Source of the DNA: a virus | IMG/VR virus record: IMGVR_UViG_3300017917_001434 | Location: 1 to 64,000 of that record | DNA length: 64,000 nt | Direction: 5' to 3' (one strand) | Shown: positions 2 to 56,325 of the stretch, in pieces | Position numbering within the stretch: the first letter of the stretch is position 1 | Layout: the number at the start of each line of letters is the position of its first letter | Position numbers and translations under genes: made by a program | The notes under the pieces: generated by a model | What the model was told of the DNA's origin: nothing | Seen by the model: the letters and a program-made list of their open reading frames with translations, nothing else | The model's database searches: none

Positions 2-106
2 TTGACTAACCCAACAGACGCTTTAGGTGCTGCTGGTGGTTACGCTGAATTGACTAAGTACAACGCTGCTCCTGGCGGCGGTGCACTGAACGTGTTCAGT
101 TTGTAA
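2..106 (+). CDS. xoxF: C-terminal fragment (5' truncated by window edge) of PQQ-dependent methanol dehydrogenase large subunit, XoxF/MxaF family
   Basis: Frame +2 reads LTNPTDALGAAGGYAELTKYNAAPGGGALNVFSL-stop(TAA 104-106), matching the C-terminal pattern of methanol dehydrogenases (L.D/N.T..LGA.G.Y/F..L..Y...GG.L.VFSL). Only 34 residues are visible, so XoxF versus MxaF is inferred. Confidence 0.8.
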   Translation: MTNPTDALGAAGGYAELTKYNAAPGGGALNVFSL

Positions 107-120
107 TCTGTAGTTGATCT

Positions 121-146
121 AAAAAGCCCACTTCGGTGGGCTTTAT
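121..146 (+). terminator. Rho-independent terminator after the dehydrogenase gene
   Basis: AAAGCCCAC-TTCG-GTGGGCTTT hairpin. Confidence 0.8.
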
Positions 147-185
147 CTATTAAATAGTATTGTAAGTTAACTAAAGGATAGTAAA

Positions 186-485
186 ATGAAATACATTTTA
201 GCAATCGTTTTAGCAACAAGTATCAACAGTGCTATAGCTAATGAGTCTCTTGCTCAAAAGAGTGGTTGTTTAGCCTGCCATAACGTAAATGTTAAGGTTC
301 TCGGTCCAGCATATAAAGACGTAGCAGCTAAGTATCGCGGACAAGCAGGTGCTGAAGACAAATTAGTAGCTAAGGTCAAAGCAGGTGGTAGTGGTGTTTG
401 GGGTGCTATTCCAATGCCGCCGCATCCGCAGATTAAAGAAGAAGACATTAGAACTATAGTAAAATGGGTATTAACCCTTAAGTAA
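186..485 (+). CDS. Periplasmic class I cytochrome c (c551/c552-like)
   Basis: Signal peptide, CLACH haem motif, GPAYKDVAAKY, and WG..PMPP carrying the Met axial ligand; TAAATA at 151-156 and AAGGA RBS. Confidence 0.93.
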   Translation: MKYILAIVLATSINSAIANESLAQKSGCLACHNVNVKVLGPAYKDVAAKYRGQAGAEDKLVAKVKAGGSGVWGAIPMPPHPQIKEEDIRTIVKWVLTLK

Positions 486-486
486 T

Positions 487-512
487 AAAAGCCCACTTTA
501 GGTGGGCTTTCT
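487..512 (+). terminator. Rho-independent terminator after cytochrome c
   Basis: AAAGCCCAC-TTTAG-GTGGGCTTT, nearly identical to the 121-146 hairpin. Confidence 0.8.
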
Positions 513-513
513 C

Positions 514-542
514 TTGACTTTAATAAATATTGATAGTATAAT
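514..542 (+). promoter_or_regulatory. sigma70-type promoter
   Basis: TTGACT-N17-TATAAT. Confidence 0.7.
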
Positions 543-2406: not shown

Positions 2407-2587
2407 AATCTTATTAATTGGTTTACTACTAGTAGGGTGTGCTACACCGCCTAAGTCTACTGTAGTAGTACCTAAGAATGATAAGAAGATGTTTTACGTA
2501 CCACCAGAAGAACTTTGGCCCGAGGATTTCCCTCCGGCGCCAAAAAGTTGCGGTAGCCCATTTACAGGAAGGTTAATATCAAGATGA
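2399..2587 (+). CDS. Small putative lipoprotein
   Basis: Hydrophobic signal with lipobox LVGC; overlaps both neighbours. Confidence 0.6.
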   Translation: MIKILLIGLLLVGCATPPKSTVVVPKNDKKMFYVPPEELWPEDFPPAPKSCGSPFTGRLISR

Positions 2588-4602
2588 AAAAACTTAAAAA
2601 GATTTTAGTAAGTCCATGGACAGCATTAATAACTTTAGCTGTCATTGTAGCAGTAGTATTTCAAGGTCCTACATTTGTTGAAAGTGTTAGGTTAAGATAC
2701 TTTGATACACTAGTTACCAGTGCGGAACCTACTCAAAATAATATCTATACTGTAAACATTGACGAAGCTACACTAGACAAATACGGGCAGTGGCCATTTA
2801 ACCGTGGTGTATATGCTAAGATTATACACGAACTATACAGTCACAATGCTGGCATTGTAGTTTGGAACGTAATGATGCCAGAAGCCGACAGACAAGGCGG
2901 TGATAGTGTACTGGCAGATATGCTTACACATCATCCTGTAATTCTATCAAACACTGTAGCAGAAAAGACTAAGAATATTCCACGTAAGCCAGGCTCGGCT
3001 GTTATTGGCGCAGAAAACTTAGGTACTATCTATAACTATCCTGGTATTATTGCTAACATTCCTGAGCTAGAACGTAATGCCACAGGTGTTGGCCTAACCT
3101 ATACCATGCCAGAAGTTGACGGTGTTAACCGCCGCTTGCCATTGTTCGCTGGCTATGATGGCAATGTATATCCAAGTTTACCTTTAGAAGTGCTACGTGT
3201 TCTAAGTCAAAACTCGACATTCCAAGTTAAGTTAAATGAGAATGGTGTTGAGAAAATGCGTATTCCGGGCTATCCTCCAATCAGTACAGACAGCTATGGG
3301 CAAATATGGGTAGACTGGAGTCAAAAATCTACAGCAGTATCCGCAGTAAACTTACCATCTGACTTTGCCAATGCTGTGGTTATTGTAGGCACAACAGCCG
3401 CAGGTATTGCTAATCCAGTACCAACTAGTTTAGGTAGCATTTGGCCTCAGGACATGCAGGCCGCTGTTATTGGCACACTGGCCAACGGTGTAAACATACA
3501 ACGTCCAGACTGGGCACCCGGTGCTGAACTGTTAGCTCTAGTTGCTATTAGTTTGTTAATTCTGTTCCTAAGTCGTTGGGTATATGTTGGCCTGGGTGTT
3601 GGTGTAGTGTTGGCCGCTAGTTTAACTCCGGTAAGCATGTATGTCTACAGTGAATACAAGTTCCTGATAGATGCTATTGTGCCCACAGCTGGTGTAGTCC
3701 TAGTTATGCTACATGCTTATGGTGTTAAGTTTATCAGTGAGTTCTTACAGAAACAACAAATCAAGAAACAGTTTGGCAGTTATGTAAGTCCTGTGATCGT
3801 TGAACGCTTACAAAAGAACCCAGACTTAATCAAACTTGGTGGTGAAGAAAAAATGCTGACCGCTGTTATGACAGACATGCGTAACTTTACTGGCTTAGGT
3901 GAGAAGTATGGCGCAGATGTAGAAGGCTTTACTGCTATCATGAACGCTTACATGACTGCTATCAGTAAACCTGTGTTTGCCAATGACGGCTGTTTAATTA
4001 AGTTCATTGGTGATGCGAGCTTACATATTCATGGTGCGCCCTTAGATGACGATCGCCATGCCTATCATGCTGTAAAGACTACACTTGAAATGATACAGGC
4101 AGTAGAGGAATTTAACAAACACTTAGAGTCAATTGGTAAACCGCCAGTAGGCATGGGTGCAGGTGTTAACACAGGTAAGATACTTGTAGGTAACATTGGT
4201 AGTGAAGGCAAGATGGGCTATGACGTATTAGGTGACCCAGTGTCAGTGGCCAGCCGATTAGAAGGACAGACCAAAGGATACGGAGTGCTAATGATCATTG
4301 GCCCCGATACTGCCGAAGCAGTTAAAGATGACTTTGAACTAGTATGGTTAGACAACATCGCAGTTAAAGGTAAAGAAGTTGGTCTAGACATCTACACTGT
4401 AGGTAAGACTGTTAAGTACAAGCACGAAGAATTTAAGAAAGAATACTTACGTGGTGATTGGAAAACTGCTAAAAAATGGGCAGAAAGTTTATTAGCAGAA
4501 CCGGGAGTAGAGATCAAAGACTACTACAAGAAAATGATTGAACGTTTAGATCAAGGCGTTCCTGCTAACTGGGATGGAACGTATCATGCTACGAGCAAGT
4601 AG
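2584..4602 (+). CDS. CHASE2-domain class III adenylate/guanylate cyclase
   Basis: CHASE2 motifs (VNIDEATL..YGQWPF.R, DGVNRRLPL), three TM helices, cyclase motifs TDMRNFT, KFIGDA, NIGS and YDVLGDPVSVASRLEG. Confidence 0.92.
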   Translation: MKKLKKILVSPWTALITLAVIVAVVFQGPTFVESVRLRYFDTLVTSAEPTQNNIYTVNIDEATLDKYGQWPFNRGVYAKIIHELYSHNAGIVVWNVMMPEADRQGGDSVLADMLTHHPVILSNTVAEKTKNIPRKPGSAVIGAENLGTIYNYPGIIANIPELERNATGVGLTYTMPEVDGVNRRLPLFAGYDGNVYPSLPLEVLRVLSQNSTFQVKLNENGVEKMRIPGYPPISTDSYGQIWVDWSQKSTAVSAVNLPSDFANAVVIVGTTAAGIANPVPTSLGSIWPQDMQAAVIGTLANGVNIQRPDWAPGAELLALVAISLLILFLSRWVYVGLGVGVVLAASLTPVSMYVYSEYKFLIDAIVPTAGVVLVMLHAYGVKFISEFLQKQQIKKQFGSYVSPVIVERLQKNPDLIKLGGEEKMLTAVMTDMRNFTGLGEKYGADVEGFTAIMNAYMTAISKPVFANDGCLIKFIGDASLHIHGAPLDDDRHAYHAVKTTLEMIQAVEEFNKHLESIGKPPVGMGAGVNTGKILVGNIGSEGKMGYDVLGDPVSVASRLEGQTKGYGVLMIIGPDTAEAVKDDFELVWLDNIAVKGKEVGLDIYTVGKTVKYKHEEFKKEYLRGDWKTAKKWAESLLAEPGVEIKDYYKKMIERLDQGVPANWDGTYHATSK

Positions 4603-5353
4603 TTTTATAGCATTATTATTAGTTACTTCGCTAGCCTGGGCCGGTCAAGTAAACATCACTGCTAAAAGTTATTTGGTAACAGATACCCATGGGCAAGTCT
4701 TACAAGAATACGAAGCAGATAGTCCACGCCCTATTGCTAGCATTACTAAATTAATGACAGTAATGGTAGTACTGGATACTAAATTGCCTTTAGATGAAGC
4801 TGTGCCATTGAATTTTAAACTAGCTAAAAGATACCACACACACTTACCACGCAGACTTAAAACTCTAACACGTAGTGAGTTAATTGATCTAGCGATGGTT
4901 AAAAGTGATAATTTTGCTGCTTATCATTTGTGTGCAAGTTACCCAGGTGGTGTTGACGATTGTATACGTGCTATGAATCTAAAAGCACACAACCTTAGCA
5001 TGACCAGTACTGTGTACACTGACCCAACTGGATTAGACGCTACTAACATAAGTACTGCCCGTGATCTAATTAAGTTAATGATTATGGCAAGAACTTATCC
5101 TGAAATTGTAGGATCAACTAAACCTAAAGTTGATGTGCAGGTCAAAAAACGTTGGTGGCAATTTTGGAACACAAATCCATTGGTGCGTAAAGGTGATGAT
5201 ATAATTGTAAGTAAAACTGGATATATTTCGCAGAGTGGCGGGTGTCTAGTTATGCTAATGAATACAGAATTTGGTCAGCGTATTGTAGCTGTGTTAGGAA
5301 GTCGTAATACACGCACACGTTTTCCGGAAGCACTAGAGCTTGCTAAGAATTAA
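4574..5353 (+). CDS. Peptidase S11 D-Ala-D-Ala carboxy/endopeptidase (PBP7-like)
   Basis: SxxK (IASITKLMT), SDN and KTG motifs; signal peptide. Confidence 0.9.
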   Translation: MERIMLRASSFIALLLVTSLAWAGQVNITAKSYLVTDTHGQVLQEYEADSPRPIASITKLMTVMVVLDTKLPLDEAVPLNFKLAKRYHTHLPRRLKTLTRSELIDLAMVKSDNFAAYHLCASYPGGVDDCIRAMNLKAHNLSMTSTVYTDPTGLDATNISTARDLIKLMIMARTYPEIVGSTKPKVDVQVKKRWWQFWNTNPLVRKGDDIIVSKTGYISQSGGCLVMLMNTEFGQRIVAVLGSRNTRTRFPEALELAKN

Positions 5354-5996
5354 AATAAGTCCAAATAATAATTGCTTCTTTGCCCGGAATACCATTCTTA
5401 ATGTAGTTGTCGCTGGTATGAAATTTGCTTCTACTGGCAGCAAATAAAGATCCTTTGGTCCAGGGAAATATTGCCTCAATGCTCATGTATTCCAAATCAT
5501 CTTTTGGAAGATGACTAAAATATTTTTCAACTTGTTCTGGTGTAATTGCGTTTAATTTCTGAGCACCGGTTGTAGATGCCCACTCTGATACTGTTTTAAT
5601 ATCAGGACTGATCTGTTCAAACACAATGGTGTTTGAATTATAGTTTTCCATTGGAATAATAAATGTCCATGCTGGCGTAGTTGTTACAAAGTTTTCCCAG
5701 TCGCCGCTTAGTACATCGCTGTGTATTCCGTAAGGTTCGGAACTATATAACATATGAATATCTTGAATTTTTAGCTTAGGGCTAAATTCTTTGTAGATAC
5801 GTGGCAGTAAGATATTTGTAACTTCAGGATGTTGTTCTGAAAATATGTTTTTTGTGTAACACACATAGTTGCCAGTCTTAGGATGATAATCGTCGTACCG
5901 CATAAAATCAATGTCGGTACGATTCATATAATTTTTAATAAAATTTATTTCTTCGTCGGAAACAAAGTGATGTATTGTTCTGGTATCTATATTCAT
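5343..5996 (-). CDS. Putative 2OG-Fe(II) oxygenase-like protein
   Basis: HSD plus distal H (KFHTS) in a DSBH-like pattern; TAAATA 5 nt upstream of ATG. Confidence 0.5.
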   Translation of the reverse strand: MNIDTRTIHHFVSDEEINFIKNYMNRTDIDFMRYDDYHPKTGNYVCYTKNIFSEQHPEVTNILLPRIYKEFSPKLKIQDIHMLYSSEPYGIHSDVLSGDWENFVTTTPAWTFIIPMENYNSNTIVFEQISPDIKTVSEWASTTGAQKLNAITPEQVEKYFSHLPKDDLEYMSIEAIFPWTKGSLFAASRSKFHTSDNYIKNGIPGKEAIIIWTYFNS

Positions 5997-6034
5997 ATAG
6001 ATATTTATTGACCAGTTTTACACCCAGTGATATT

Positions 6035-6400
6035 TTAGCCTTCGCCGCTTGCAGCAGTGTTGTCGTCTTCTGATTTTGCTTTCTTTTTATCTAGAGATAC
6101 TGCTTCGTTAAACTTCTCAGCGGCTTCGCGTTCAACTTTAACACTTTCCATAACACGTTCACTTTCAATCATTTTACCACGTAAGTGTAAGACAGTGTTT
6201 ACTTTTTGATTCAAACGTATTAGGTCATTGTCTAACATACGTATACGATCGATAAGCGCAATCAGCACAGTGTTAGCTTCGGATATAACAGGTTTAACTT
6301 CTTTAGTTGACCATTCCCATACATACTTGATAATAAAACCCATACCGACAGCAAACACTATCGGAAAACCATACTTACTAATTAAACCTACTACATCCAT
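6035..6400 (-). CDS. Small membrane-anchored coiled-coil protein (GFPI motif)
   Basis: N-terminal TM with YGFPIV; paralogous to 8226-8507. Confidence 0.7.
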   Translation of the reverse strand: MDVVGLISKYGFPIVFAVGMGFIIKYVWEWSTKEVKPVISEANTVLIALIDRIRMLDNDLIRLNQKVNTVLHLRGKMIESERVMESVKVEREAAEKFNEAVSLDKKKAKSEDDNTAASGEG

Positions 6401-6401
6401 G

Positions 6402-6536
6402 TTAATCCCCCGACAGTGGTGTTACAACGATTGTTGGCGCAACTGTGTGTTTTTCAGCGTAATTATATTCTACAACTGCCCAGATTACTAAAGTAACCCA
6501 TACAGCAAACAAAAATAATTTTCTAAGTTCTATCAT
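6402..6536 (-). CDS. Small membrane protein (44 aa), absent from the ORF track
   Basis: MIELRKLFLFAVWVTLVIWAVVEYNYAEKHTVAPTIVVTPLSGD; ATGA overlap with the upstream stop; fills the gap. Confidence 0.6.
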   Translation of the reverse strand: MIELRKLFLFAVWVTLVIWAVVEYNYAEKHTVAPTIVVTPLSGD

Positions 6537-7087
6537 AAGAATAATAAAAATCCCTGTAGCATTAAAAATATGCCAGCACCTGCCATGACAAAACTACCCC
6601 AGAATAGGGCCATACTAACTGACAGAATACTTGCTGATAATAATACAATACTTAGTTGATATGCTGTTGAGGCATAACCAATCCAGGGTAGTTGACGCTT
6701 GTAGTGATCACGCTGTTCTTCAAGCGCCTTGGCCTGTGCCATTAGTGCTGGCTTGCCTTCATCACCTAAGTCGTAACTCTTAGCCTTTTCTGCCCAGGCC
6801 TTAGCTTTGGCAGGATCTGTGGATTGCTGTGCGGCAAGTTCATACTGTGTTTGTTTAATGCTTTTTGCTTGATAGAACGCCCACAGGTCGTTAGCCTGGA
6901 TAGTATTGTTCATTACTTTACTATTTAAGCTACCTTGAAACCACATATTAAAAGCTAGAAGAGCGGCAAAGATGTTAATAACTAATCCTGCTTTACTCTT
7001 AATGCGACTACTGCGTTCTTCGTTTGGTGTGCCTTTTTCTTCGTTACGACGAAGTAATTTTACTACTGAATCTGTTACTAGTGCCAT
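6533..7087 (-). CDS. DUF4337-like membrane protein
   Basis: ANDLWAFYQAKSIKQ motif with TM helices at both ends. Confidence 0.75.
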   Translation of the reverse strand: MALVTDSVVKLLRRNEEKGTPNEERSSRIKSKAGLVINIFAALLAFNMWFQGSLNSKVMNNTIQANDLWAFYQAKSIKQTQYELAAQQSTDPAKAKAWAEKAKSYDLGDEGKPALMAQAKALEEQRDHYKRQLPWIGYASTAYQLSIVLLSASILSVSMALFWGSFVMAGAGIFLMLQGFLLFL

Positions 7088-7863
7088 TATCCGTTATCTC
7101 CATCTGCCCAACGTCTTAAATTTTCTGCATAACGTGTTATGCTGTGATTTGTAAAGAAATTAATATTCTTTTTCTTAAGGCCTACTAAGAATCCACGCCA
7201 CACATCTTTGGTAACTTGCCAAAATGTTAAAGCACGTAGATGTCCATAGTGATTCATATAGTACATACCACCAAAGTGATAGAATGGCCACAAAGGAACA
7301 CGTGCTACAATATCAGCATTGTTTACAAAACGGAAGTGTAGTACACCTGTCGCTTCAATACCTTTAACGTAGGCTTTGTTGCCAACACGCGGACTTCCAA
7401 AAGTAAACAAAGCCATTGGATTGGGTGTATCTTCTGTACGCTGTAATCTAAATGCTATTAATGTTGCCATAGCAGCACCTAGGCTGTGTCCAGTACACCA
7501 AACTTGACGTGTTTTACCGTAGTCGTTGGCTAATTCATGTAAGGTGGGCCAAATATCATCTACTGATTCTCTAAACCCTGCGTGTACCTTACCAACACCT
7601 GTTACACTCGGTACAGGAATTGCTTTTAAGTCCGCGGCAATGTCTTTAAACTCTGTAGGTTCGGTACCACGACATACAATAACTAAATCTTCATCGTTAA
7701 CTAACCAGTACGCCTGACTACCATCATGATCAATAAACGTAGCATCAAATCCTAGGTCCGCGTAGGCATTTACACCATCTCTAGGTTCCAAATAGGCTAT
7801 TTCACTACACTTAGCCATCAACCAAGCACGTTCTGGGAACGGCAACATATTAATCGCTGTCAT
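7087..7863 (-). CDS. Lipase class 3
   Basis: RGTE, VHAGF, TGHSLGAA nucleophile elbow, TFGSPRVGN, DIVARVP and C-terminal His. Confidence 0.92.
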   Translation of the reverse strand: MTAINMLPFPERAWLMAKCSEIAYLEPRDGVNAYADLGFDATFIDHDGSQAYWLVNDEDLVIVCRGTEPTEFKDIAADLKAIPVPSVTGVGKVHAGFRESVDDIWPTLHELANDYGKTRQVWCTGHSLGAAMATLIAFRLQRTEDTPNPMALFTFGSPRVGNKAYVKGIEATGVLHFRFVNNADIVARVPLWPFYHFGGMYYMNHYGHLRALTFWQVTKDVWRGFLVGLKKKNINFFTNHSITRYAENLRRWADGDNG

Positions 7864-8024
7864 AATGAAATCCCCAAAAGAAATCCTACCATAAGTCCTG
7901 CTAAACTACCGTAGACAAAAAATAACCATAAATCTCGGTCGTGCCATACAGGCTGTTTCTTCATCCATTCCTGAGTCCATTTTGGCTGACTCTCAAACCA
8001 ACGTTGAAATTCACTTTTATACAT
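7860..8024 (-). CDS. Small hypothetical membrane protein
   Basis: GGGGAG RBS before ATG 8024; C-terminal TM. Confidence 0.55.
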   Translation of the reverse strand: MYKSEFQRWFESQPKWTQEWMKKQPVWHDRDLWLFFVYGSLAGLMVGFLLGISL

Positions 8025-8223
8025 TGTCTGTCTCCCCTGCTGTTGCTCTGGCATAATCCCAAGCAAATTGTTCTTCTGTTGTTAAGGTGTAAACTTTAGT
8101 CACTCGAGCAACACGATCGGCTAGATCACGCAATTCACTGCCAAGTACAGCAGTTTTTTTACTGTTTTCTAACGCTCGAGCAATACTATGTAAATCTATA
8201 ACTATTTGACTATATTCGTTCAT
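8017..8223 (-). CDS. Hypothetical protein
   Basis: Packed ORF in the minus-strand operon. Confidence 0.55.
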   Translation of the reverse strand: MNEYSQIVIDLHSIARALENSKKTAVLGSELRDLADRVARVTKVYTLTTEEQFAWDYARATAGETDNV

Positions 8224-8225
8224 GA

Positions 8226-8507
8226 TTAATCTCTACGTGCGTCATTTTTACCGTCGGCACGTGCTATACGGTCTACATCAGGTTTTAAACCTAGTGCATT
8301 ACTTACAATAGTGTCAATGCGTACTACATCATGATTCATAGTCTTAACACGGTTATCTAGCGCCGTGATAATACCAGCCATGCCTTTAATACTGCCTAAC
8401 ACGCCTTGTAATAGTAATTTGATTGTGAGATAAACGAAATAGCCGCCAGCTAGGGCAACTGCGATAGGAAATCCAAGATCTCCAATGAGTTTGAATACTT
8501 GATCCAT
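8226..8507 (-). CDS. Small membrane-anchored protein (GFPI motif), paralog of 6035-6400
   Basis: AAGGAG RBS before ATG 8507; LGFPIAVAL TM; ALDNRVKTMNHD aligns with ALIDRIRMLDND. Confidence 0.7.
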   Translation of the reverse strand: MDQVFKLIGDLGFPIAVALAGGYFVYLTIKLLLQGVLGSIKGMAGIITALDNRVKTMNHDVVRIDTIVSNALGLKPDVDRIARADGKNDARRD

Positions 8508-8561
8508 GTCTTGCTCCTTGATTTTACTTCTTTTTATTATAAAAGTATTTATGGATTCTGC

Positions 8562-8590
8562 TTGACTTTTTAGGTTCGGGGCAGTATAAT
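8562..8590 (+). promoter_or_regulatory. sigma70-type promoter, divergent from a minus-strand TAAATA at 8546-8551
   Basis: TTGACT-N17-TATAAT. Confidence 0.7.
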
Positions 8591-8618
8591 ATAAATACTC
8601 GCACAAGGAGAGTCTAAA

Positions 8619-20144: not shown

Positions 20145-20395
20145 TGAAAGAACTTGTATTAAACGACGATTGGCAGTATAACAATGAAGAAGAGGCTGAA
20201 ATGGGCCAACTTCATGCTATCCATAACAACATGAATGCTGTAGCTGACGTGCGCCGTAAGTTACTGGAACAAGCTGCACAACCTAGCGCAGAGTTCTGTG
20301 AAGAGTGCGGTGATGAAATCCCAGAAGCTAGACGCAAGGCTGTACCAGGTGTACAGTTCTGCGTATTCTGTCAAGAAAAACATGAGCGTAGATAA
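20144..20395 (+). CDS. DksA/TraR family C4 zinc-finger protein
   Basis: CEECGDEIPEARRKAVPGVQFCVFCQ. Confidence 0.88.
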   Translation: MKELVLNDDWQYNNEEEAEMGQLHAIHNNMNAVADVRRKLLEQAAQPSAEFCEECGDEIPEARRKAVPGVQFCVFCQEKHERR

Positions 20396-21506
20396 TATTT
20401 GTTTTCATCCATGGGTAGGATTAGATATTGGTCCCCAAGGTGAGTTTAAGCCTTGTTGTAAATATCAAAACAGTATTGCCAATAACATTGATGATTACTA
20501 CAACAGCAAAGAATTAGCTGATCTTAAAGATGCTTTCTCACGAGGAGAACGGCCAACTGGTTGTCAGCGTTGTTGGAGTGATGAGGATGCCGGTCATCCT
20601 AGCAAACGTTTAGATGACTGGAAATATATTTTTAATGAAACAGTTCCTAACACAGACAAACTAAAAGTTTTAATGTTTGCCTTTGGTAATAGTTGTAATT
20701 TAGCCTGTCGAACCTGTAACAGTTATTCGTCGTCAACTTGGATCATTGAATCGAGAAAAGTTATCGATTTATTCCCAGACTCTAAGATATATAAGCACCA
20801 GAGATTTTATCAAGACATCTATTTACTCGATCGTTTAAAGTCTTTAGGATCAGACATCACCGAGCTGTATTTTCATGGTGGCGAACCATTCATTGCTGGC
20901 ACTGCTGAACACTTAGATTTTTTAAAATATTTCCTTACTCAACGGCCTGAAAATATAACTTTGCATTACATGACAAATGTCACAATATTTCCTCAGCAAG
21001 AATTTTGGGATATTTGGAAACAATTTAAAAAAGTTAACATACAGTTGAGCATTGACGGTATTGGTTCACATTTTGAATATACTCGTTGGCCTGCGAAATG
21101 GACCGACGTTGAATTAAATATCAATCAATATAAACAGTATTCAGGCGACAATATAAAATTATCAGTGGGACACGTGATTAGTATTTTTACAGTCTACTAT
21201 CTGCCAGAATTTTATAAATGGCTATTACAAAATAAATTTGTTGATCCGTTTATTAGTCTGCTAGCAGACCCTGAAATCTATAATATTAAAACTTTACCCA
21301 AAGATGTTAAAGATCGTGTTGCTGAAAAATTGACAAAATATAAGTTTGACACTATAATACAGTATATGTATTCTGAAGATTTAAGCGGTACATTTGGTCA
21401 AACCGCAGAGTATACAAGAATATTGGATCAACAGAGAAATCAAAATTTTGAAAACACTTTTCCAGAATTTAATCAATTATTAAAGGAATCAGGATGCCAA
21501 ATTTAG
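20382..21506 (+). CDS. Radical SAM protein with N-terminal SPASM/twitch-like Cys cluster
   Basis: CNLACRTC and GGEPF; N-terminal CFHPW..PCC..CQRC. Confidence 0.88.
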
Positions 21507-22114
21507 TACCAATGGTTTTAGAGCGTACATCAGAAGGTGAACGCAGTTATGATATCTACAGTCGATTGCTCAAAGACCGTATTGTCATGCTAGACACTGA
21601 AGTTAGTGAACATTCAGCCAGTCTGCTAGTAGCACAGTTGCTATTTTTAGAAGCAGAAAATCCAGAACAGGATATTTTGTTTTACATTAACAGCCCAGGC
21701 GGTAGTGTTACTGCTGGTCTAGCAATTTATGACACTATGCAGTTTATCAAACCAGACGTGCGTACTATTGTAATTGGACAGGCTGCCAGTATGGGCAGTT
21801 TTCTAGCACAAGCCGGTGCACCAGGTAAACGTTATGTGTTACCCGAATCGCGTACAATGATTCACCGTGTGAGCTCGGGCACACGCGGCACAGGCGGTAG
21901 CGTGTATGTACAGGAATTAGAGTTTGAAGATGCACGTCGACACTTAGAAGAAAGCAAACGTTTAAATCAACGTCTGACAGAGTTGTATGTTAAGCACAAC
22001 TCTAAAGGCAAGGCCTATGATGAACTTGCCGAGGCAATGAAGTTTGATACCTTTTTATCAGCTGAACAGGCAGTTGAATATGGCCTAGCGGATGAAATCA
22101 TTACCAAACGCTAA
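21494..22114 (+). CDS. clpP: ATP-dependent Clp protease proteolytic subunit
   Basis: [31 protein letters not shown] (catalytic Ser), MIH. Confidence 0.95.
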
Positions 22115-23378
22115 CGTCTTTTGTAATACACCATGGTACGAGGCTCACATCTATTGGGATGGGAGTCTCGGTATCTGCTGTCAGGAAAGTTTTAAACTCA
22201 GCGAAGATCCTCAATATAATATCCGAAACATGACTCTAGCCGAGTGGTTTAACAGCGAGCCTGTTAGAAAGCTTCGGTTGGGTATTTTAGGCAACGACGG
22301 CTTACCTATTTGTAATCGTTGTTACCAAGAAGAAACACACAGTGGCACTAGCCGTAGACACCGTAGCAATCAAAAAAGTGTAATCTTTACCAAGCAGGCA
22401 TTTGCGGAAAGTTTTGATCAAAGCCCAGGTTACGAACACTTTATGTTCAGCAAAGGTATGGATGGACTTACTACAACCATGCCCATTGATCTGCATATTG
22501 ATTTAGGTAATCACTGTAATTTAGCCTGCAAGATGTGTTGGCCAGGTGCTAGCACACGTATTGCTAGCCAATGGGTTAAATGGGGACTTCCTGCTGAACA
22601 ATATCTTGGCGTAGACTGGACCAAAGATGAACAGGTCTGGCGCAGGTTTATGGGCGAACTGGTTGCCATACCTAAACTTAAGAACATACATTTTATGGGC
22701 GGCGAAACACTGTTAAGTCCTAGACTAGAGCAACTAATAGATCACATGATCACGCATAAAAGATTTGATGTTTGTTTTAGTTTTGTCACTAACGGAACAG
22801 TGTATAAGCCGGACTTAATTGAAAAGCTCAAACTGTTTGGGCGGGTAGGCATTGAAATCAGTATAGAAACAACTACTCGGCACAATGATTATATACGGCA
22901 AGGATCTCGGGTTGAAGAAGTCATTGAAAATATCCAACGTTATAAACAGCTATGCGACGGGTCCAAGGTTAGTCTTACTCTACGTCCTGCTATCAGCGCA
23001 TTATCTATTGGATACTATCATACACTACTACAATTTTGTTTAGATGAACAACTATTAATCAAGAGCTTGATAGTGAGAGATCCGCGGTATCTAGAACCAT
23101 CAGTACTGTCGCATAAAATACGCGAGCATTACATACTACCTTACTTAAAAATGTTAAATTCTCTAGGCGATGTTGATACTATTACAGATTACAACGAAAG
23201 TGACCCAAACAATTATCTTCGGGTAGTTAAACAACAGGTAGAACAGGTAATAAATCTACTTAGAGAAAGTCCCAAATCTTACGCTACCGCGGAACTATTA
23301 CATTGGTGTCAGCGTTGGGACAAAGAGTTTGGTTTTGACATGTTTGAACTCTATCCAGAATTTAAGGATCTAAAATGA
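22092..23378 (+). CDS. Radical SAM protein with N-terminal SPASM/twitch-like Cys cluster
   Basis: [16 protein letters not shown]; N-terminal CNTPW..CC..CNRC. Confidence 0.88.
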
Positions 23379-28295: not shown

Positions 28296-28589
28296 ATGAA
28301 GTTAAATCCCATACATGACCGTGTGGTCATTCGACGTATCGAAGCCGATACACAATCTGCTGGGGGTATCATAATCCCAGATACAGCCACAGAAAAACCC
28401 GATCAAGGAATCGTCTTAGCAGTAGGACAAGGTCGCCGTACCGAAGATGGTGTACTGGTGCCTATGACTCTTAAAGTTGACGATCGAGTATTGTTTGGCA
28501 AGTTTGCAGGACAACAAGTTAAGATTCAAGGTGAAGAACTACTGATTCTTCGCGAAGAAGATATTTTTGCAGTAATTGAGGAGGTTTAA
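28296..28589 (+). CDS. groES: Co-chaperonin GroES
   Basis: [17 protein letters not shown] mobile loop, [14 protein letters not shown]. Confidence 0.95.
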
Positions 28590-30215
<1,626 letters not shown>

Positions 30216-41200: not shown

Positions 41201-42857
41201 ATACCTGCCGACTTATAACGGCAACATAGGTAACTTAACATTAAACAGTTCGGCTACGATATTTGCTGGCAATACCACAGCAAATATTACCATTGGGGCA
41301 ACTACTTGGGGAGCCGAAGCCGTAAATAGAAAAATAACCATTGGCGGCATCGGGCAAAAGATTTACTTTGATGGTAACAGTAGCCAATACAGTTACATGG
41401 ATGATGATGAATTCTACATCTATGACGGTAAAAATAATGCCACAGCTTACTACAAAGCTAATCAGTTTGCACTTAATCGCAATGACTATACTGGTTATTT
41501 TGATGCTGGCCCAGGTACTCTAACTATTGGAGCCTATGTAGGCAACGATCGATCCTTTGTAGCCAACCTAAATATGGTTACTTGGGGTAATAGTACCGTC
41601 AGAACTACGATCGGTAACACTGGTATTACAACCACCGGAAATGTTACCGCGGGTAATGTAAGTGCCACTAACTTAACTGGTACACTACTAACAGCCGCAC
41701 AAACTAATATTACATCAGTTGGTAACTTGTCAAGTTTATCAACCAGTGGCACCGTTAGTGCTATTGGTCAAGTGCGTGCTAATAGTGGAATTGCTTCCAC
41801 TAGTACAACCACTGGAGCATTAACAGTTATCGGTGGTATCGGTGTTAGTGGTAACGTATACACCGGCGGTATTGTTGATATTACCAGCACTGCCGCAAGT
41901 ACAAGTACGTCAACTGGCGCACTGATTGTTGATGGTGGTGCCGGTATTGCTGGCAATGTTAACGCAGGTAACGTAAGTGCTACTAACTTAACTGGTACAC
42001 TACAAACAGCTGCACAGCCAAGTGTCACCAGCGTAGGTACGTTGACTAGTTTAGCTGTAAGTAACGGTCTAGCGGCTACTTTTGCTGTAACCGCCAACTC
42101 GTCAACATTTACAGATACTGTAAATGTTTCTACAACAAATAAAGTTATACGAGTAGTAAACAATCTACAAGATATTCATTTTAATGCTAATTTGGGTACC
42201 GGTAGCTACAACAATCTTGTTCAAGCCCGAGATGGCGGCATTATATTCTCTAACGGTACCCAAGGACAAGGTAACTTAACTATCGGTCCATGGATTTCAG
42301 GAACATCAGGAATTAGAATTGTTGGAAATACCGGACAAGTTACTGTTCCTGGTTTCTTAAATATCAACAGTAACAATAATGCTACTGCTATTGTGAACGG
42401 TGGTACCAACGGTGTTGGTAACATTGGTGCCAGTGGTGCTGGATTTAACACAGTATTTGCTCGTGCTACATCAGCACAGTACGCTGACTTAGCCGAGATC
42501 TATACCAGCGATCGCGACTATGTTCCGGGCACTGTACTAATATTTGGTGGTGAGCAAGAAGTTACTGTCAGCACGGAGTCACATGATCCGCGTGTAGCAG
42601 GTGTTGTATCCACTAACCCAGCCTACATCATGAACAACTCCTGTGATGGTGTAGAAGTTGCTCTACAAGGTCGTGTGCCAACTAAGGTACAGGGTCCTGT
42701 AAACAAAGGTGATAGACTTGTGACCAGTAGTACACAAGGTGCTGCAGAACGCTTAGACATGACCAAATATCAACCAGGTTGTATCATTGGTAAAGCACTA
42801 GAAGCTATTGCCGATGATAGTATACAAACTATCGAAGTTGTGGTTGGTCGCGTCTAA
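38265..42857 (+). CDS. Long tail fibre protein with coiled-coil repeats and C-terminal intramolecular chaperone
   Basis: 13 copies of about TANTN(M/L)KGY(V/I)D; two copies of LVNGAPATLDTL.ELAAALGND; C-terminal YADLAE...IEVVVGRV. Confidence 0.85.
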   Translation: MSLIRPRFSQLNTVVTTIDDPMTVLNKSGTSANIDVGFIINRDGGASSNLAMIWDQTANNFAFGFTTASGLTNANISIGTYANLRAGSFIGDGSQLTGINTSTDKIFSGNSNVVATSNYVNIAINNSNVISILDDLDTPGYNDTTKGDVRINGTVNITGQAYANSGLAVRGGVEARENNAGSWSTLSSTIPLVARNTGSDTVAFGLYNSAGDNENILLVNYRGNLHINSGSSDFVIVSNRGTIVNVETVSTSTSTGALQVKGGAGIAGNLYAATLYGNIGGGSTLSNVYVTGSLIPTANITYDLGSPTQRWRDGWFSGTTIYIGSEAMSVDENGKWSFTSKGATVELGKEADFNPPSANISGNVTASAFNFANGVSMMSVISSAITDTNTAMKGYVDGHVNSLSSNAAVQAGELANLWANAGAQSSTITTANTNMKGYVDSTITTANTNLKGYVDGQITNLVNGAPATLDTLKELAAALGNDANLSVTITNQIANVNSNITTANTNMKGYIDGQLSSVTANTGVQAGLISSAEANITLANTNMKGYVDGQISTATSAITTANTNLKGYVDAANTIQSNQISGANSAITAANTNMKGYVDGEITTIVSRIDAANSAITTANTNLKGYVDSANTIQSNQIAGANSAITTANTNMKGYVDGQISTTTSAITTANTNMKGYVDAQVSGASGYGNANVAAYLPTYNGNLTTAGIYTDGYFYANGTAVSFSGGSSSYGDSNVAAYLTTNQYAVIGNITTANTNMKGYVDAANTIQSNQISGANSAITTANTNMKGYVDAQITNLVNGAPATLDTLNELAAALGNDANLSVTITNQIANVNSNIGTANTNMKGYVDSIAYSNSSVASYLPSYSGNVASLTVAGNINVVGNLLAKGLKGSDGQLLSATETGLAWVSLGNSPLITDDNGTTVQTNGLFVNVEIDSSNVARFEPSKLTVFGNVYAGTFYGDGSQLTGIAGEYGNVDVGTYLPTYNGNIGNLTLNSSATIFAGNTTANITIGATTWGAEAVNRKITIGGIGQKIYFDGNSSQYSYMDDDEFYIYDGKNNATAYYKANQFALNRNDYTGYFDAGPGTLTIGAYVGNDRSFVANLNMVTWGNSTVRTTIGNTGITTTGNVTAGNVSATNLTGTLLTAAQTNITSVGNLSSLSTSGTVSAIGQVRANSGIASTSTTTGALTVIGGIGVSGNVYTGGIVDITSTAASTSTSTGALIVDGGAGIAGNVNAGNVSATNLTGTLQTAAQPSVTSVGTLTSLAVSNGLAATFAVTANSSTFTDTVNVSTTNKVIRVVNNLQDIHFNANLGTGSYNNLVQARDGGIIFSNGTQGQGNLTIGPWISGTSGIRIVGNTGQVTVPGFLNINSNNNATAIVNGGTNGVGNIGASGAGFNTVFARATSAQYADLAEIYTSDRDYVPGTVLIFGGEQEVTVSTESHDPRVAGVVSTNPAYIMNNSCDGVEVALQGRVPTKVQGPVNKGDRLVTSSTQGAAERLDMTKYQPGCIIGKALEAIADDSIQTIEVVVGRV
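39420..40812 (+). repeat. Coding repeat array (TANTNMKGYVD) in the tail fibre gene
   Basis: Recurrent ACCACAGCTAATACYAAYATGAARGGTTATGTTGA-like units with variable in-frame linkers. Confidence 0.9.
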
Positions 42858-42864
42858 AAACCTC

Positions 42865-42893
42865 TTGACTTTTACTCAAAAAGGCTGTACAAT
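42865..42893 (+). promoter_or_regulatory. sigma70-type promoter
   Basis: TTGACT-N17-TACAAT. Confidence 0.7.
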
Positions 42894-42923
42894 ACGCTTA
42901 TACTTAATTAATAGGCGTATTCT

Positions 42924-44255
42924 ATGGACTTTCCTTGGCAGGTAATCAGCGCACTAGAAACACACAATCTGCGCACTAACAAAGAACAAATTATTGAAGC
43001 GCAAGTCAGTGAAAAGAATACAGAATTCTTTGCAGGCTGTAGACTTGCTCTTGATCCTATGATTACATTTGGGGTTCGGCAAATTGATGAAAAAACCAAT
43101 GAACCTCCTAAACCCGGTACTGGCACAGGACTCAGCTGGGCAGGATTCCAACAACTAGCCGACCGACTGTCTAGTCGCGCCCTAACAGGCAACGAAGCAC
43201 AAATAGCACTTACACATGCACGTCAAAAAGCCACAGTAGAACAGTGGAACCTGTGGTATCGCCGCATTTTAATTAAAGATCTACGCTGCGGTGTAACAGA
43301 AAAAACAATTAACAAAGTAGTGGAGAAACATAATGCTAAAGATTACGCTATTCCTGTGTTTACTTGTCAACTTGCTCACGACAGCGCCAATCATGAAACT
43401 AAGGTTACGGGACAGCGACTCATCGAAGTCAAACTTGATGGAGTACGTGTTATTGCTATTGTCTATCCAAATGGCACTGTTAGTCTTTTTAGCCGGAACG
43501 GTAAACAGCTAACAAACTTCCCATTGGTTGAACAACAACTGAGCAAACACGCTATATTTTTTGCTGAACCCATAGTACTTGATGGCGAAATTATGAGTGC
43601 TAGTTTTCAGGATTTAATGAAACAAGTACACCGTAAAAGTGATGTACAGAGCGAAGATGCCGTACTAAATTTGTTCGACATCATAACATTACGCGAGTTT
43701 CAAGCTGGTCGCAGTGAACACAGGCAAATTGACCGTAGTGTAAGTTTAGCACATTGGTACAATCAATTTGCTGATCATATGCCCAATGTTACAGTAGTAG
43801 GGCAAGAGCTAGTTGACTTAAATACAGATGAAGGGCAACAGCGTTTTAAACAAATTAACGCGGAAGCCATTGCTGGTGGGTACGAAGGTATTATGATCAA
43901 AGACCCAGAAGCAGTGTACGAATGTAAACGTACAGTTAATTGGCTTAAACTCAAGCCATTTATTGAAGTTAGTTTGGAGGTTAAACATGTGGAAGAAGGT
44001 ACTGGAAGGAATGAAGGACGACTTGGCGCCCTTGTTTGCGAAGGAATCGACGATGGGCGACAGATATCTGTCAATGTTGGTAGCGGTTTCAGTGACAGTG
44101 ATCGTAGCCTGTTTTGGAGCGATCGTAGTAGAATTATTGGAAATATTGTGGAAGTGAGAGCAGATGCTGTTACGCAAAATCAAGACGGCACTTACTCGCT
44201 ACGTTTTCCTAGGTTCTTGCGTTTTAGAGGCTTTGAAATTGGCGAAAAACTATAA
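42924..44255 (+). CDS. ATP-dependent DNA ligase
   Basis: EVKLDGVR (motif I), LDGEI, EGIMIK, WLKLK, SLRFPRF. Confidence 0.93.
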   Translation: MDFPWQVISALETHNLRTNKEQIIEAQVSEKNTEFFAGCRLALDPMITFGVRQIDEKTNEPPKPGTGTGLSWAGFQQLADRLSSRALTGNEAQIALTHARQKATVEQWNLWYRRILIKDLRCGVTEKTINKVVEKHNAKDYAIPVFTCQLAHDSANHETKVTGQRLIEVKLDGVRVIAIVYPNGTVSLFSRNGKQLTNFPLVEQQLSKHAIFFAEPIVLDGEIMSASFQDLMKQVHRKSDVQSEDAVLNLFDIITLREFQAGRSEHRQIDRSVSLAHWYNQFADHMPNVTVVGQELVDLNTDEGQQRFKQINAEAIAGGYEGIMIKDPEAVYECKRTVNWLKLKPFIEVSLEVKHVEEGTGRNEGRLGALVCEGIDDGRQISVNVGSGFSDSDRSLFWSDRSRIIGNIVEVRADAVTQNQDGTYSLRFPRFLRFRGFEIGEKL

Positions 44256-55425: not shown

Positions 55426-56325
55426 ATGACATCATCAATTAACCCAAACAATATTGACGGCCAGTATCCTGTTGCCGGTCAAGATAATGACAGTCAGGGA
55501 TTTCGTGATAATTTCACTAATATCAGAAATAACCTAACTTTTGCAAAAACAGAGATTGAAGACCTACAACAAAACGTGCTGTTAAAAGGTGCATTGTCAG
55601 GTGCTACACTAGACAACGAAATGAGTAACACACAGCTAAAAGGTGTTCAGTGCTTACGTTTTACAGAAACCATTGACGAACTAGGCCCTCTCAGCGGAAC
55701 AGTTACAATAGATTGGCAACAAGCACACTTTCATGTTTTAGAAACCAGTGGAAGTGTAGAATTAGATTTCATTGGTTGGCCAACTAGTGGATTTTTTACT
55801 AAACTACGTTTAGAGGTTGACGTTACTAGCACAGCACATACATTAACATTGCCAACTGAAGTTACTCAAGGTGCACGTTTTATACGTGGTGCAGCCCTTG
55901 ACAGTGTAACTGGTAAATGGACTATTACGTTTACACAAATTGGTGTTTATCAATTTGAATTTAGTAGCTACAACAACGGTACTACTATAACAATGTTTGA
56001 TTTAACACGCAACAGTAACCCAGCATTAACTGATTATCAATATCTAACTCCAACAGCAGGCGGCTTTGCTAATATCAGCGCATACGCATCAACTGTTATT
56101 GTTAATCCAGCTGGTACTATTGCTAGTGCTAATATTAATTTTCCTGCAAATACCAGTGTATTAGATGGACAAACTATAAGTTTTGCCTTTGGAAATACCA
56201 TTACTACATCAACGTTATTTGGTAATGGTGCTACAATCAGTGGTACGTTAACCACTGCTGGTGCTACAACACCTGCAAAATTCATTTACAAGCAATCAAC
56301 AAACACTTGGTATAGATTAGGTTAA
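55426..56325 (+). CDS. Virion protein
   Basis: YPVAGQDNDSQGFRDNF N-terminus; lies in the late operon. Confidence 0.7.
   Translation: MTSSINPNNIDGQYPVAGQDNDSQGFRDNFTNIRNNLTFAKTEIEDLQQNVLLKGALSGATLDNEMSNTQLKGVQCLRFTETIDELGPLSGTVTIDWQQAHFHVLETSGSVELDFIGWPTSGFFTKLRLEVDVTSTAHTLTLPTEVTQGARFIRGAALDSVTGKWTITFTQIGVYQFEFSSYNNGTTITMFDLTRNSNPALTDYQYLTPTAGGFANISAYASTVIVNPAGTIASANINFPANTSVLDGQTISFAFGNTITTSTLFGNGATISGTLTTAGATTPAKFIYKQSTNTWYRLG

Follow-up and report, generated by a model that had tools for sequence, protein, structure and literature searches.

The 3' end of a host-like xoxF gene and a c551-type cytochrome gene in a large phage of Methylophilaceae

IMG/VR record IMGVR_UViG_3300017917_001434 (89,592 bp), whose bases 1-64000 are the stretch analyzed here and are called the window throughout, begins inside a gene that we identify as xoxF, the lanthanide-dependent methanol dehydrogenase gene of Methylophilaceae, and continues through a hairpin, the gene of a small cytochrome c and a near copy of the same hairpin. 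The record covers part of the genome of a large Methylophilaceae phage; these bacteria live in fresh water and use methanol. In our judgment the explanation that accounts best for these observations, and one that we hold with good though not full confidence, is that the window opens with the end of a xoxF gene resident in the phage, that the body of this gene has been replaced by a host allele, that the cytochrome gene behind it is a cassette, and that both genes would support respiration during infection.

The window and the record share their first base, so that xoxF is cut at the 5' end of the contig, and the remainder of the gene is unreadable in the record because the contig begins there. 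Elsewhere the record encodes tail-fibre proteins, a DNA ligase, a clamp loader, GroEL, ClpP, a Clp ATPase, twitch radical-SAM proteins and a virion structural protein of 1342 amino acids (phrog_5838). CheckV estimates that the record is 22% complete, and the whole genome should accordingly measure several hundred kilobases. Gene by gene, the 89.6-kb record is collinear with three viral contigs, G001 (104 kb; also labelled L032), G002 (72 kb) and G003 (23 kb; also labelled L035), which are referred to below as its relatives. The virion structural protein is unmatched in the fragments G001-G005, each of which is at most 20% complete, and this absence is therefore uninformative.

Read in frame 2, bases 2-103 encode LTNPTDALGAAGGYAELTKYNAAPGGGALNVFSL, followed by a stop codon at 104-106. 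Searched against the PDB, this tail has its four top matches at the very C-terminal ends of large subunits of methanol dehydrogenases, each aligned over its full length; first comes 6oc5, a lanthanide-dependent XoxF (E = 0.026), and then the MxaF structures 2ad6, 1g72 and 2d0v. Residues 588-621 of the full-length phage XoxF of G001 share 94% identity with the tail (E = 2e-15), and the XoxF encoded on metagenome contig L030 ends in exactly the same residues (100% identity). Of 85 XoxF sequences from Methylophilaceae and phages, 82 contain the NAAPGGG motif, and the part of the XoxF family that closes the eight-bladed propeller, its C-terminal strand and tail, is present in the window. Judged by these alignments, bases 2-106 are the end of a Methylophilaceae-type XoxF, a predicted periplasmic methanol dehydrogenase that depends on lanthanides and pyrroloquinoline quinone (PQQ). 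A preliminary description of this DNA had proposed the C-terminus of a PQQ methanol dehydrogenase at this place and had likened it to the lanthanide-type XoxF of Methylophilaceae; the PDB and XoxF alignments bear out the former, and the PDB matches, the identity to L030 and the distribution of NAAPGGG the latter. The program-made track of open reading frames (ORFs) lacks the tail because xoxF begins beyond the 5' end of the contig. At its opposite end the record has no xoxF start, and the tail is the sole match to xoxF in it. Two minus-strand ORFs, at 40-219 and 254-622, were considered as genes and rejected, since nothing supports them and they are antisense to the xoxF tail and to the cytochrome gene.

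To place this gene end, we compared it with metagenome contigs. An exact 60-mer from the window start matches three of them, L029, L030 and L031, and an exact 60-mer scan of viral contigs returned no match. On L030 (104.7 kb), xoxF is followed by xoxJ, two genes for cL-type cytochromes, ndh, an MFS transporter gene and phoH; complete Methylophilaceae chromosomes have these genes in the same order, and L030 is therefore bacterial. L031 has the same host-type layout. The window and all three contigs are identical across window bases 1-99, and window and host type then split at bases 100-101, where the window reads AGT TTG TAA and the host AGC CTG TAA (blastn of the window against L030 gives 2 mismatches in 107 nucleotides, both at these bases). 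The Ser codon near the gene end is AGT in all four phage-type sequences and AGC in all three hosts. After the stop codon, TAATCTGTAGTTGATCT-AAAAAGCCCACTTCGGTGGGCTTT is common to the window, G001 and G003, and L029 has it with changes, whereas the 3' untranslated region (UTR) of the hosts (L030, L031 and isolate RH-M32, L041) is different, about 42 nucleotides longer and with a CACCCCGCTTCGGCGGGGTG hairpin. L029 comes from a separate assembly, is 86.6% identical to window bases 1-597, and carries the xoxF tail, hairpin, cytochrome c gene and second hairpin in the same order as the window.

The relatives show what lies beyond the contig end in this lineage. Nine IMG/VR viral contigs carry xoxF (87-92% amino acid identity to L030), and in G001, G002 and G003 the gene stands 5-10 kb upstream of a CHASE2-cyclase gene, the equivalent of which is at 2584-4602 in the window. 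Complete genes of 621-624 amino acids, with signal peptide, vicinal CC and DEWDYDG, are found in G001, G002 and L033. We used TIGR03075 and PF01011 as models of the XoxF family; the complete phage XoxF of G001 scores 613 bits with TIGR03075 (cut-off 480) and matches 6oc5 with E = 7e-201. The lanthanide-ligand Asp distinguishes XoxF, which has D-Y-D, from MxaF, which has D-x-A; DEWDYDG is present in 85 of 85 XoxF sequences of relatives and hosts, and CCDNV in each of the six inspected sequences that cover the region. The phage-flanked location of the gene is thus documented on its downstream side by the phage genes and collinearity of the record, and on its upstream side by the relatives, from which we would expect a full-length xoxF in this phage as well. 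In the fetched flanks (up to about 6 kb) of host xoxF genes, no c551-like gene was found at any of 82 loci, and xoxJ was found at 62. As a separate observation, xoxF of G001 belongs to an island of envelope and periplasm genes (5963-16608), with a FecR-like protein, a PA14-domain protein and a porin encoded upstream, and a metallophosphoesterase, a PstS-like phosphate-binding protein, a phosphate-selective porin O/P and an AhpC peroxiredoxin encoded downstream.

A tree of 85 XoxF sequences, with four phage copies included, does not unite the phage copies in one clade, and its supported branches force at least three changes. Each phage copy pairs with a bacterial allele: those of G001 and G003 with isolates RH-M32 and MMSCM63 (98% amino acid identity), that of L033 with LSUCC0665 (95%), and that of G002 with Uisw_099_01 (95%). 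The window tail is the L030 allele, the nearest named relative of which is Ca. Methylopumilus universalis. At the nucleotide level, the xoxF genes of G001 and RH-M32 are 97.3% identical, and most segments of 150 nucleotides are 99-100% identical, while the opening segment, which covers the signal peptide, is 82% identical. Compared phage with phage, xoxF is 79-82% identical. At the other end of the gene, host-like sequence gives way to phage-like sequence inside the final 7 nucleotides. The simplest reading of these patterns is that the body of xoxF would have been repeatedly replaced, through homologous recombination, by the allele of the current host, while the edges of the gene and the hairpins remained the phage's own. 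We lean, by a modest degree, towards a more general proposal, in which xoxF is a fixed slot bounded by hairpins, the allele of each Methylophilaceae host that is infected keeps overwriting the body of the coding sequence, and the neighbouring slot takes interchangeable helpers such as pqqA or, here, the soluble cytochrome c. If this is true, the phage enzyme is always matched to the XoxG, XoxJ and lanthanide-handling partners of the host, and xoxF becomes a nucleotide-level marker of who infects whom, the heterotroph counterpart of psbA exchange in cyanophages.

Identity to a host allele may also explain why the contig ends where it does. Contig ends within xoxF are found in six of the nine IMG/VR viral xoxF contigs, in this record and in the host contig L030, and L029 and L031 start 6 and 25 nucleotides upstream of the window start. 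The end at base 1 fits a branch in the assembly graph, with bases 1-99 as the shared node: the contig would stop there because the phage xoxF equals the allele of a co-occurring host, which leaves the assembler without a unique upstream path. Although short-read assemblers can collapse near-identical variants, breaks as frequent as these in xoxF require identical stretches that are real and long. Breaks within xoxF would then be a systematic assembly problem that arises from near-identical alleles, and phage xoxF could be under-counted. The contigs that show such breaks include the viral contigs L035-L040, alongside L030, L029 and L031.

The second gene of interest encodes a class I cytochrome c with a signal peptide (cleavage probably after A18), a haem site at C28LACH32 and the axial ligand M77 in IPMPP. 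In the PDB it is matched best by 2d0s (E = 1e-28) and next by the c551/c552 proteins of Pseudomonas, Nitrosomonas and Hydrogenobacter, and 16 solved c551/c552 sequences align over the whole mature protein (E = 1e-28 to 1e-21). It has the single CxxCH, the Met sixth ligand, the mature size of about 80 residues and the similarity to solved members that characterise c551/c552, and it exceeds the cut-off of PF00034 (35.4 bits); its score of 19.7 bits with NF045774, a narrow NCBIfam model, falls short of the cut-off of 118. The protein has no match to TIGR03872 (cL/MoxG), a model that both host cytochromes of L030 match at E of about 1e-25, below the curated cut-off, and BLASTP against XoxG of L030 gives 24% identity (E = 0.001). 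On these two grounds we rejected the identification of the cytochrome as XoxG/cL, and the soluble electron carrier of the preliminary description is a general carrier of c551/c552 type.

In the cytochrome tree, the proteins of the window and of L029, 92% identical to each other, fall within a supported clade (SH-aLRT, the approximate likelihood-ratio branch support, 95) together with Methylophilaceae hosts and related phages. A homologue is present in 188 of 201 Methylophilaceae genomes, with best identities of 77-81% in the smallest genomes, and in the one host locus inspected the gene is stand-alone, outside the xox cluster. By homology, then, the cytochrome is a general small soluble carrier of Methylophilaceae that the phage derived from its hosts. 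It may correspond to the 'cytochrome cH' step of methanol oxidation in Methylophilus. In G001 the cytochrome gene lies between ahpC and the cyclase gene on the opposite strand, and in L004 among queuosine and S-adenosylmethionine (SAM) genes; the slot after the xoxF hairpin is itself variable, being occupied by pqqA in G003 and by a metallophosphoesterase gene in G001. Because both the locations of the gene and the cargo of the slot vary in the relatives, the cytochrome gene is best seen as an independent cassette bounded by hairpins and not as a fixed partner of xoxF. The preliminary description had spoken of a methanol-oxidation module, which overstates an adjacency that the relatives do not conserve; the hairpins, the TAAATA motif and the signal-peptide cytochrome c (CLACH...PMPP) that it listed are all present where it placed them. 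Outside the group of Methylophilaceae phages, c551/c552-type cytochrome genes form several separate clades among the 27 IMG/VR viral contigs on which such genes occur, and some of the contigs concerned (L007-L028) may be prophages with host flanks.

The positions of these elements are collected in the table.

Table. Features at the start of the window, with the evidence for each.
Feature	Position	Strand	Evidence
Stretch identical in nucleotides to the bacterial xoxF alleles of L030 and L031 and to the phage-type L029	1..99	+	alignments
3' end of xoxF, last 34 codons and TAA	2..106	+	translation; C-terminus matches to XoxF/MxaF
Phage-specific gene end and 3' UTR: Ser codon AGT, then TAATCTGTAGTTGATCT, hairpin 1	98..146	+	alignments with phage and hosts
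TAAATA (151-156; core like that of T4 late promoters) and AAGGA (174-178; ribosome-binding site)	151..178	+	sequence; predicted
Periplasmic class I cytochrome c, c551/c552 (c8) type, 99 amino acids	186..485	+	PDB, Pfam, tree
Hairpin 2, near copy of hairpin 1; the pair flanks the cytochrome gene	488..510	+	motif scan, folding
Sigma-70-type promoter TTGACT-17-TATAAT, directly after hairpin 2	514..542	+	11/12 consensus match; predicted

Hairpin 1 (123-144) is AAAGCCCAC-TTCG-GTGGGCTTT, with a folding energy of -15.0 kcal/mol, and hairpin 2 is AAAGCCCAC-TTTAG-GTGGGCTTT, with -15.7 kcal/mol. The pattern GCCCAC-N(3-7)-GTGGGC occurs in the 64 kb at these two sites only, where 0.01 occurrences are expected by chance. 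The cytochrome gene of L029 is bracketed by hairpins likewise, and in G001 it is xoxF itself that is bracketed by the same hairpin, with a AAAAAGCCCACTYCGGTGGGCTTTTTT copy upstream. The TAAATA motif stands 29 nucleotides ahead of the ATG of the cytochrome gene, and a weak sigma-70-like match (9 of 12 consensus positions) lies at 160-187. Of 112 crudely called genes, 23 have TAAATA at most 40 nucleotides upstream, where its genome-wide density predicts about 1.9, and such an enrichment ahead of gene starts is in keeping with late promoters of the T4 kind; across the window as a whole, the canonical T4 late promoter TATAAATA shows no enrichment (4 seen, 7.5 expected). The predicted promoter after hairpin 2 faces a small ORF (603-758) and two desaturase genes.

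Companion genes of xoxF bear on how the phage enzyme may work. A pqqA gene (PF08042, over the cut-off) accompanies xoxF in G001 (55615-55671), G002 (41887-41943) and G003 (1571-1627), in the last directly after the xoxF hairpin. The genes xoxG, xoxJ and ndh are absent from the phage contigs G000-G003, so that the phage enzyme would depend on the partners of the host, and this need would favour a phage allele matched to that of the host. We propose that xoxF is held at a fixed place a few kilobases upstream of the CHASE2-cyclase gene in this lineage, that the phage signal-peptide region and the 3' UTR hairpin are kept while homologous recombination would swap the gene body for the host allele, and that the slot behind the xoxF hairpin would have received a host-derived c551/c552 cytochrome gene here and pqqA or other cargo in the relatives. 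In a long infection the phage could in this way re-supply two abundant periplasmic components. XoxF would oxidise methanol and pass the electrons to the host XoxG (cytochrome cL), from which they might travel through the small cytochrome to the terminal oxidase, so that proton-motive force and ATP supply would be maintained while host gene expression fails. Expression of both genes and this path of electrons are what we would predict, and the suggestion, already made in the preliminary description, that the phage sustains methanol respiration during infection seems to us the most reasonable function for them.

Several observations weigh against this explanation. Just 34 codons of xoxF are present in the record. 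No pqqA, which accompanies the gene in all three relatives, is found in its 89.6 kb (about 22% of the genome), and the contigs G000-G003 lack the xoxG, xoxJ and ndh that the enzyme would need. The upstream partner contig was not found, and all nine viral xoxF contigs differ from the L030 allele, to which their nucleotide identity is 84% at most. The near-identity of phage and host alleles could partly reflect the collapsing of variants by a short-read assembler. The place and orientation of the cytochrome gene vary in the relatives, and its adjacency to xoxF may be incidental. Lastly, the U-tracts of the hairpins are weak, and a scan with a terminator consensus called neither hairpin.

Three other explanations have to be weighed against a resident, host-matched xoxF. 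The phage may keep nothing of xoxF except a 3' remnant, the rest having been removed by the shuffling of hairpin cassettes, which would make the cytochrome its sole functional cargo. The shortness of the visible tail, the rearranged region between xoxF and the cyclase gene among relatives and the lack of pqqA in the record all agree with this, and some 100 nucleotides or more of identity to a host allele would break an assembly in the same manner. We nevertheless think it unlikely, because an intact frame up to the stop and 99 bases identical to a live host allele are unexpected for a decaying gene, because complete genes stand at the syntenic site in G001, G002 and L033, and because L029, 13% diverged, has the same arrangement with its coding tail perfectly kept. 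It has to be asked as well whether the first 100 or so bases are bacterial and were joined to the phage by an assembly error or at a prophage-host junction, given that bases 1-99 match the bacterial contigs L030 and L031 completely and stand at the very end of the contig. Against such a join, the final two codons and the 3' UTR are of phage type and continuous with the coding tail, the same junction recurs in the independent, diverged L029, xoxF of the relatives has phage genes on both sides, and no host locus of the 82 has the cytochrome nearby; moreover, a genome of several hundred kilobases with tail-fibre, virion structural and T4-like replication genes is not that of a typical temperate phage. 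A chimeric join or host flank is therefore very unlikely, and we rejected it; the preliminary description, which had argued for phage genes over host flank, is upheld here by the phage-specific UTR, the three collinear relatives that bear xoxF and the junction in L029.

A weightier alternative, which we regard as a real possibility while not preferring it, leaves xoxF aside and concerns the role of the cytochrome. It may be an independent cassette that serves the general respiratory chain (from bc1 or other dehydrogenases to the oxidase) or another periplasmic redox task, and that is a neighbour of xoxF by chance. The protein is of c551/c552 type and not XoxG/cL, its host homologue is stand-alone in the one locus inspected, its gene sits elsewhere and in either orientation in the relatives, and the c551 type is spread over 27 viral contigs of several clades. 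In obligate methylotrophs, methanol oxidation supplies most of the respiratory electrons. A general carrier would still serve the methanol path, so that this alternative differs from respiration support through xoxF and cytochrome together in the specificity of the role only; in addition, two diverged phage variants, that of the window and that of L029, keep the gene directly behind xoxF.

Phage-borne methanol dehydrogenase has been published before, and the window adds one more, incomplete case. Coutinho et al. 2020 (Microbiome 8:163, PMC7678222) reported viral genes for methanol dehydrogenase, pqqA, radical SAM proteins and the SAM cycle from the T4-like phage populations VP_139 and VP_266 of Lake Baikal, with Methylophilaceae as predicted hosts, and proposed the same function. 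As far as its description goes, our record resembles these populations in being a large T4-like freshwater phage of Methylophilaceae with the methanol dehydrogenase gene of its host, and its relatives G001-G003 resemble them in the pairing of that gene with pqqA; it differs in holding the last 34 codons only. No cytochrome is mentioned in the main text or the text-form supplements of that paper (PMC7678222), nor does the paper describe a c551-type gene directly behind xoxF, the paired hairpins or a match between phage xoxF and the alleles of hosts. What the window adds is hence the cytochrome cassette directly behind xoxF, the two hairpins, and the nucleotide identity to a host allele that would explain the contig end. 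Apart from Coutinho et al. 2020, our literature searches returned no paper on c551/c552 auxiliary genes of phages, on the Methylophilus cytochrome cH or on Methylopumilus jumbo phages that bear xoxF.

Compared with the chromosomal cluster xoxF-xoxJ-xoxG(-xoxG)-ndh (L030, L031, L041/L042, L084, L107), the phage has the same enzyme in a different setting: in the hosts, xoxF is followed by xoxJ and cL-type cytochromes (TIGR03871, TIGR03872), whereas in the phage it is followed by a UTR and hairpin of its own and a c551-type cytochrome. The cytochrome, in turn, is similar to Hydrogenophilus thermoluteolus c552 (2d0s), Pseudomonas c551 (351c, 451c) and Nitrosomonas europaea c552 (1a56), with E = 1e-28 to 1e-24, and shares with the c551/c552 family the mature length of about 80 residues, the CxxCH near the N-terminus and the Met ligand in PMPP; unlike the members listed, it is encoded by a phage, and its identity to any sampled host is at most 77-81%.

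Two other phage systems invite comparison. Cyanophages carry psbA, a photosystem II gene that is exchanged between phage and host and undergoes intragenic recombination. As with psbA, the phage here holds a copy of a gene for a key, highly expressed energy protein, and the phage xoxF genes are interleaved with those of hosts in the phylogeny; the pathway and the cellular compartment are different, and the identity to the host is 99-100% over most of the gene, with the boundaries at its edges. T4-type phages also possess PeSL (promoter-early stem-loop) elements, which are mobile regulatory cassettes. The hairpins of the window are possible counterparts of PeSL: they are repeated stem-loops around single cargo genes of a hypervariable region, with a strong sigma-70 promoter match at hairpin 2, and different cargo stands behind the same hairpin in the relatives. 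They differ in that two copies only are present in 64 kb and that hairpin 1 is not followed by a strong promoter, and their mobility is putative.

In lakes and coastal waters, Methylophilaceae are among the main consumers of methanol, with XoxF as the central enzyme of their energy supply. Phages with xoxF and a soluble cytochrome would keep methanol respiration running in infected cells, which bears on estimates of carbon flux. The pairing of phage and host alleles between phage-specific flanks also offers a testable link from uncultured large phages to their hosts, and material for studies of recombination. RH-M32 and MMSCM63 are candidate bait hosts, since one phage allele is 98% identical to both at the protein level.

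Behind the cytochrome cassette, the small ORF at 603-758 encodes 51 amino acids with three Cys, matches no Pfam or NCBIfam family and has a weak match to L029 in its C-terminal part. It is followed, still after the 514-542 promoter, by tandem fatty-acid desaturase genes (PF00487; 275 and 254 amino acids; 815-2406), homologues of which are found elsewhere in G001 (41397-42970) at 67-78% identity. The gene at 2584-4602, our anchor of synteny, encodes an adenylate/guanylate cyclase of 672 amino acids with a CHASE2 sensor, 52-75% identical to its counterparts in G001-G003; a membrane cyclase encoded by a phage is unusual. After the cyclase gene comes a D-Ala-D-Ala carboxypeptidase (Peptidase_S11) with a signal peptide, the two together occupying 2584-5353. 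Farther along, a minus-strand gene at 7087-7863 encodes a protein of 258 amino acids with a GHSLGAA motif, a putative class 3 lipase or esterase; it is kept at 72-84% identity in G001 and G003. In the region 20298-23378, the ClpP gene (21494-22114) lies between two genes for twitch-domain radical SAM proteins (NF033640; 402 and 428 amino acids), and GroES and GroEL are encoded at 28296-30215.

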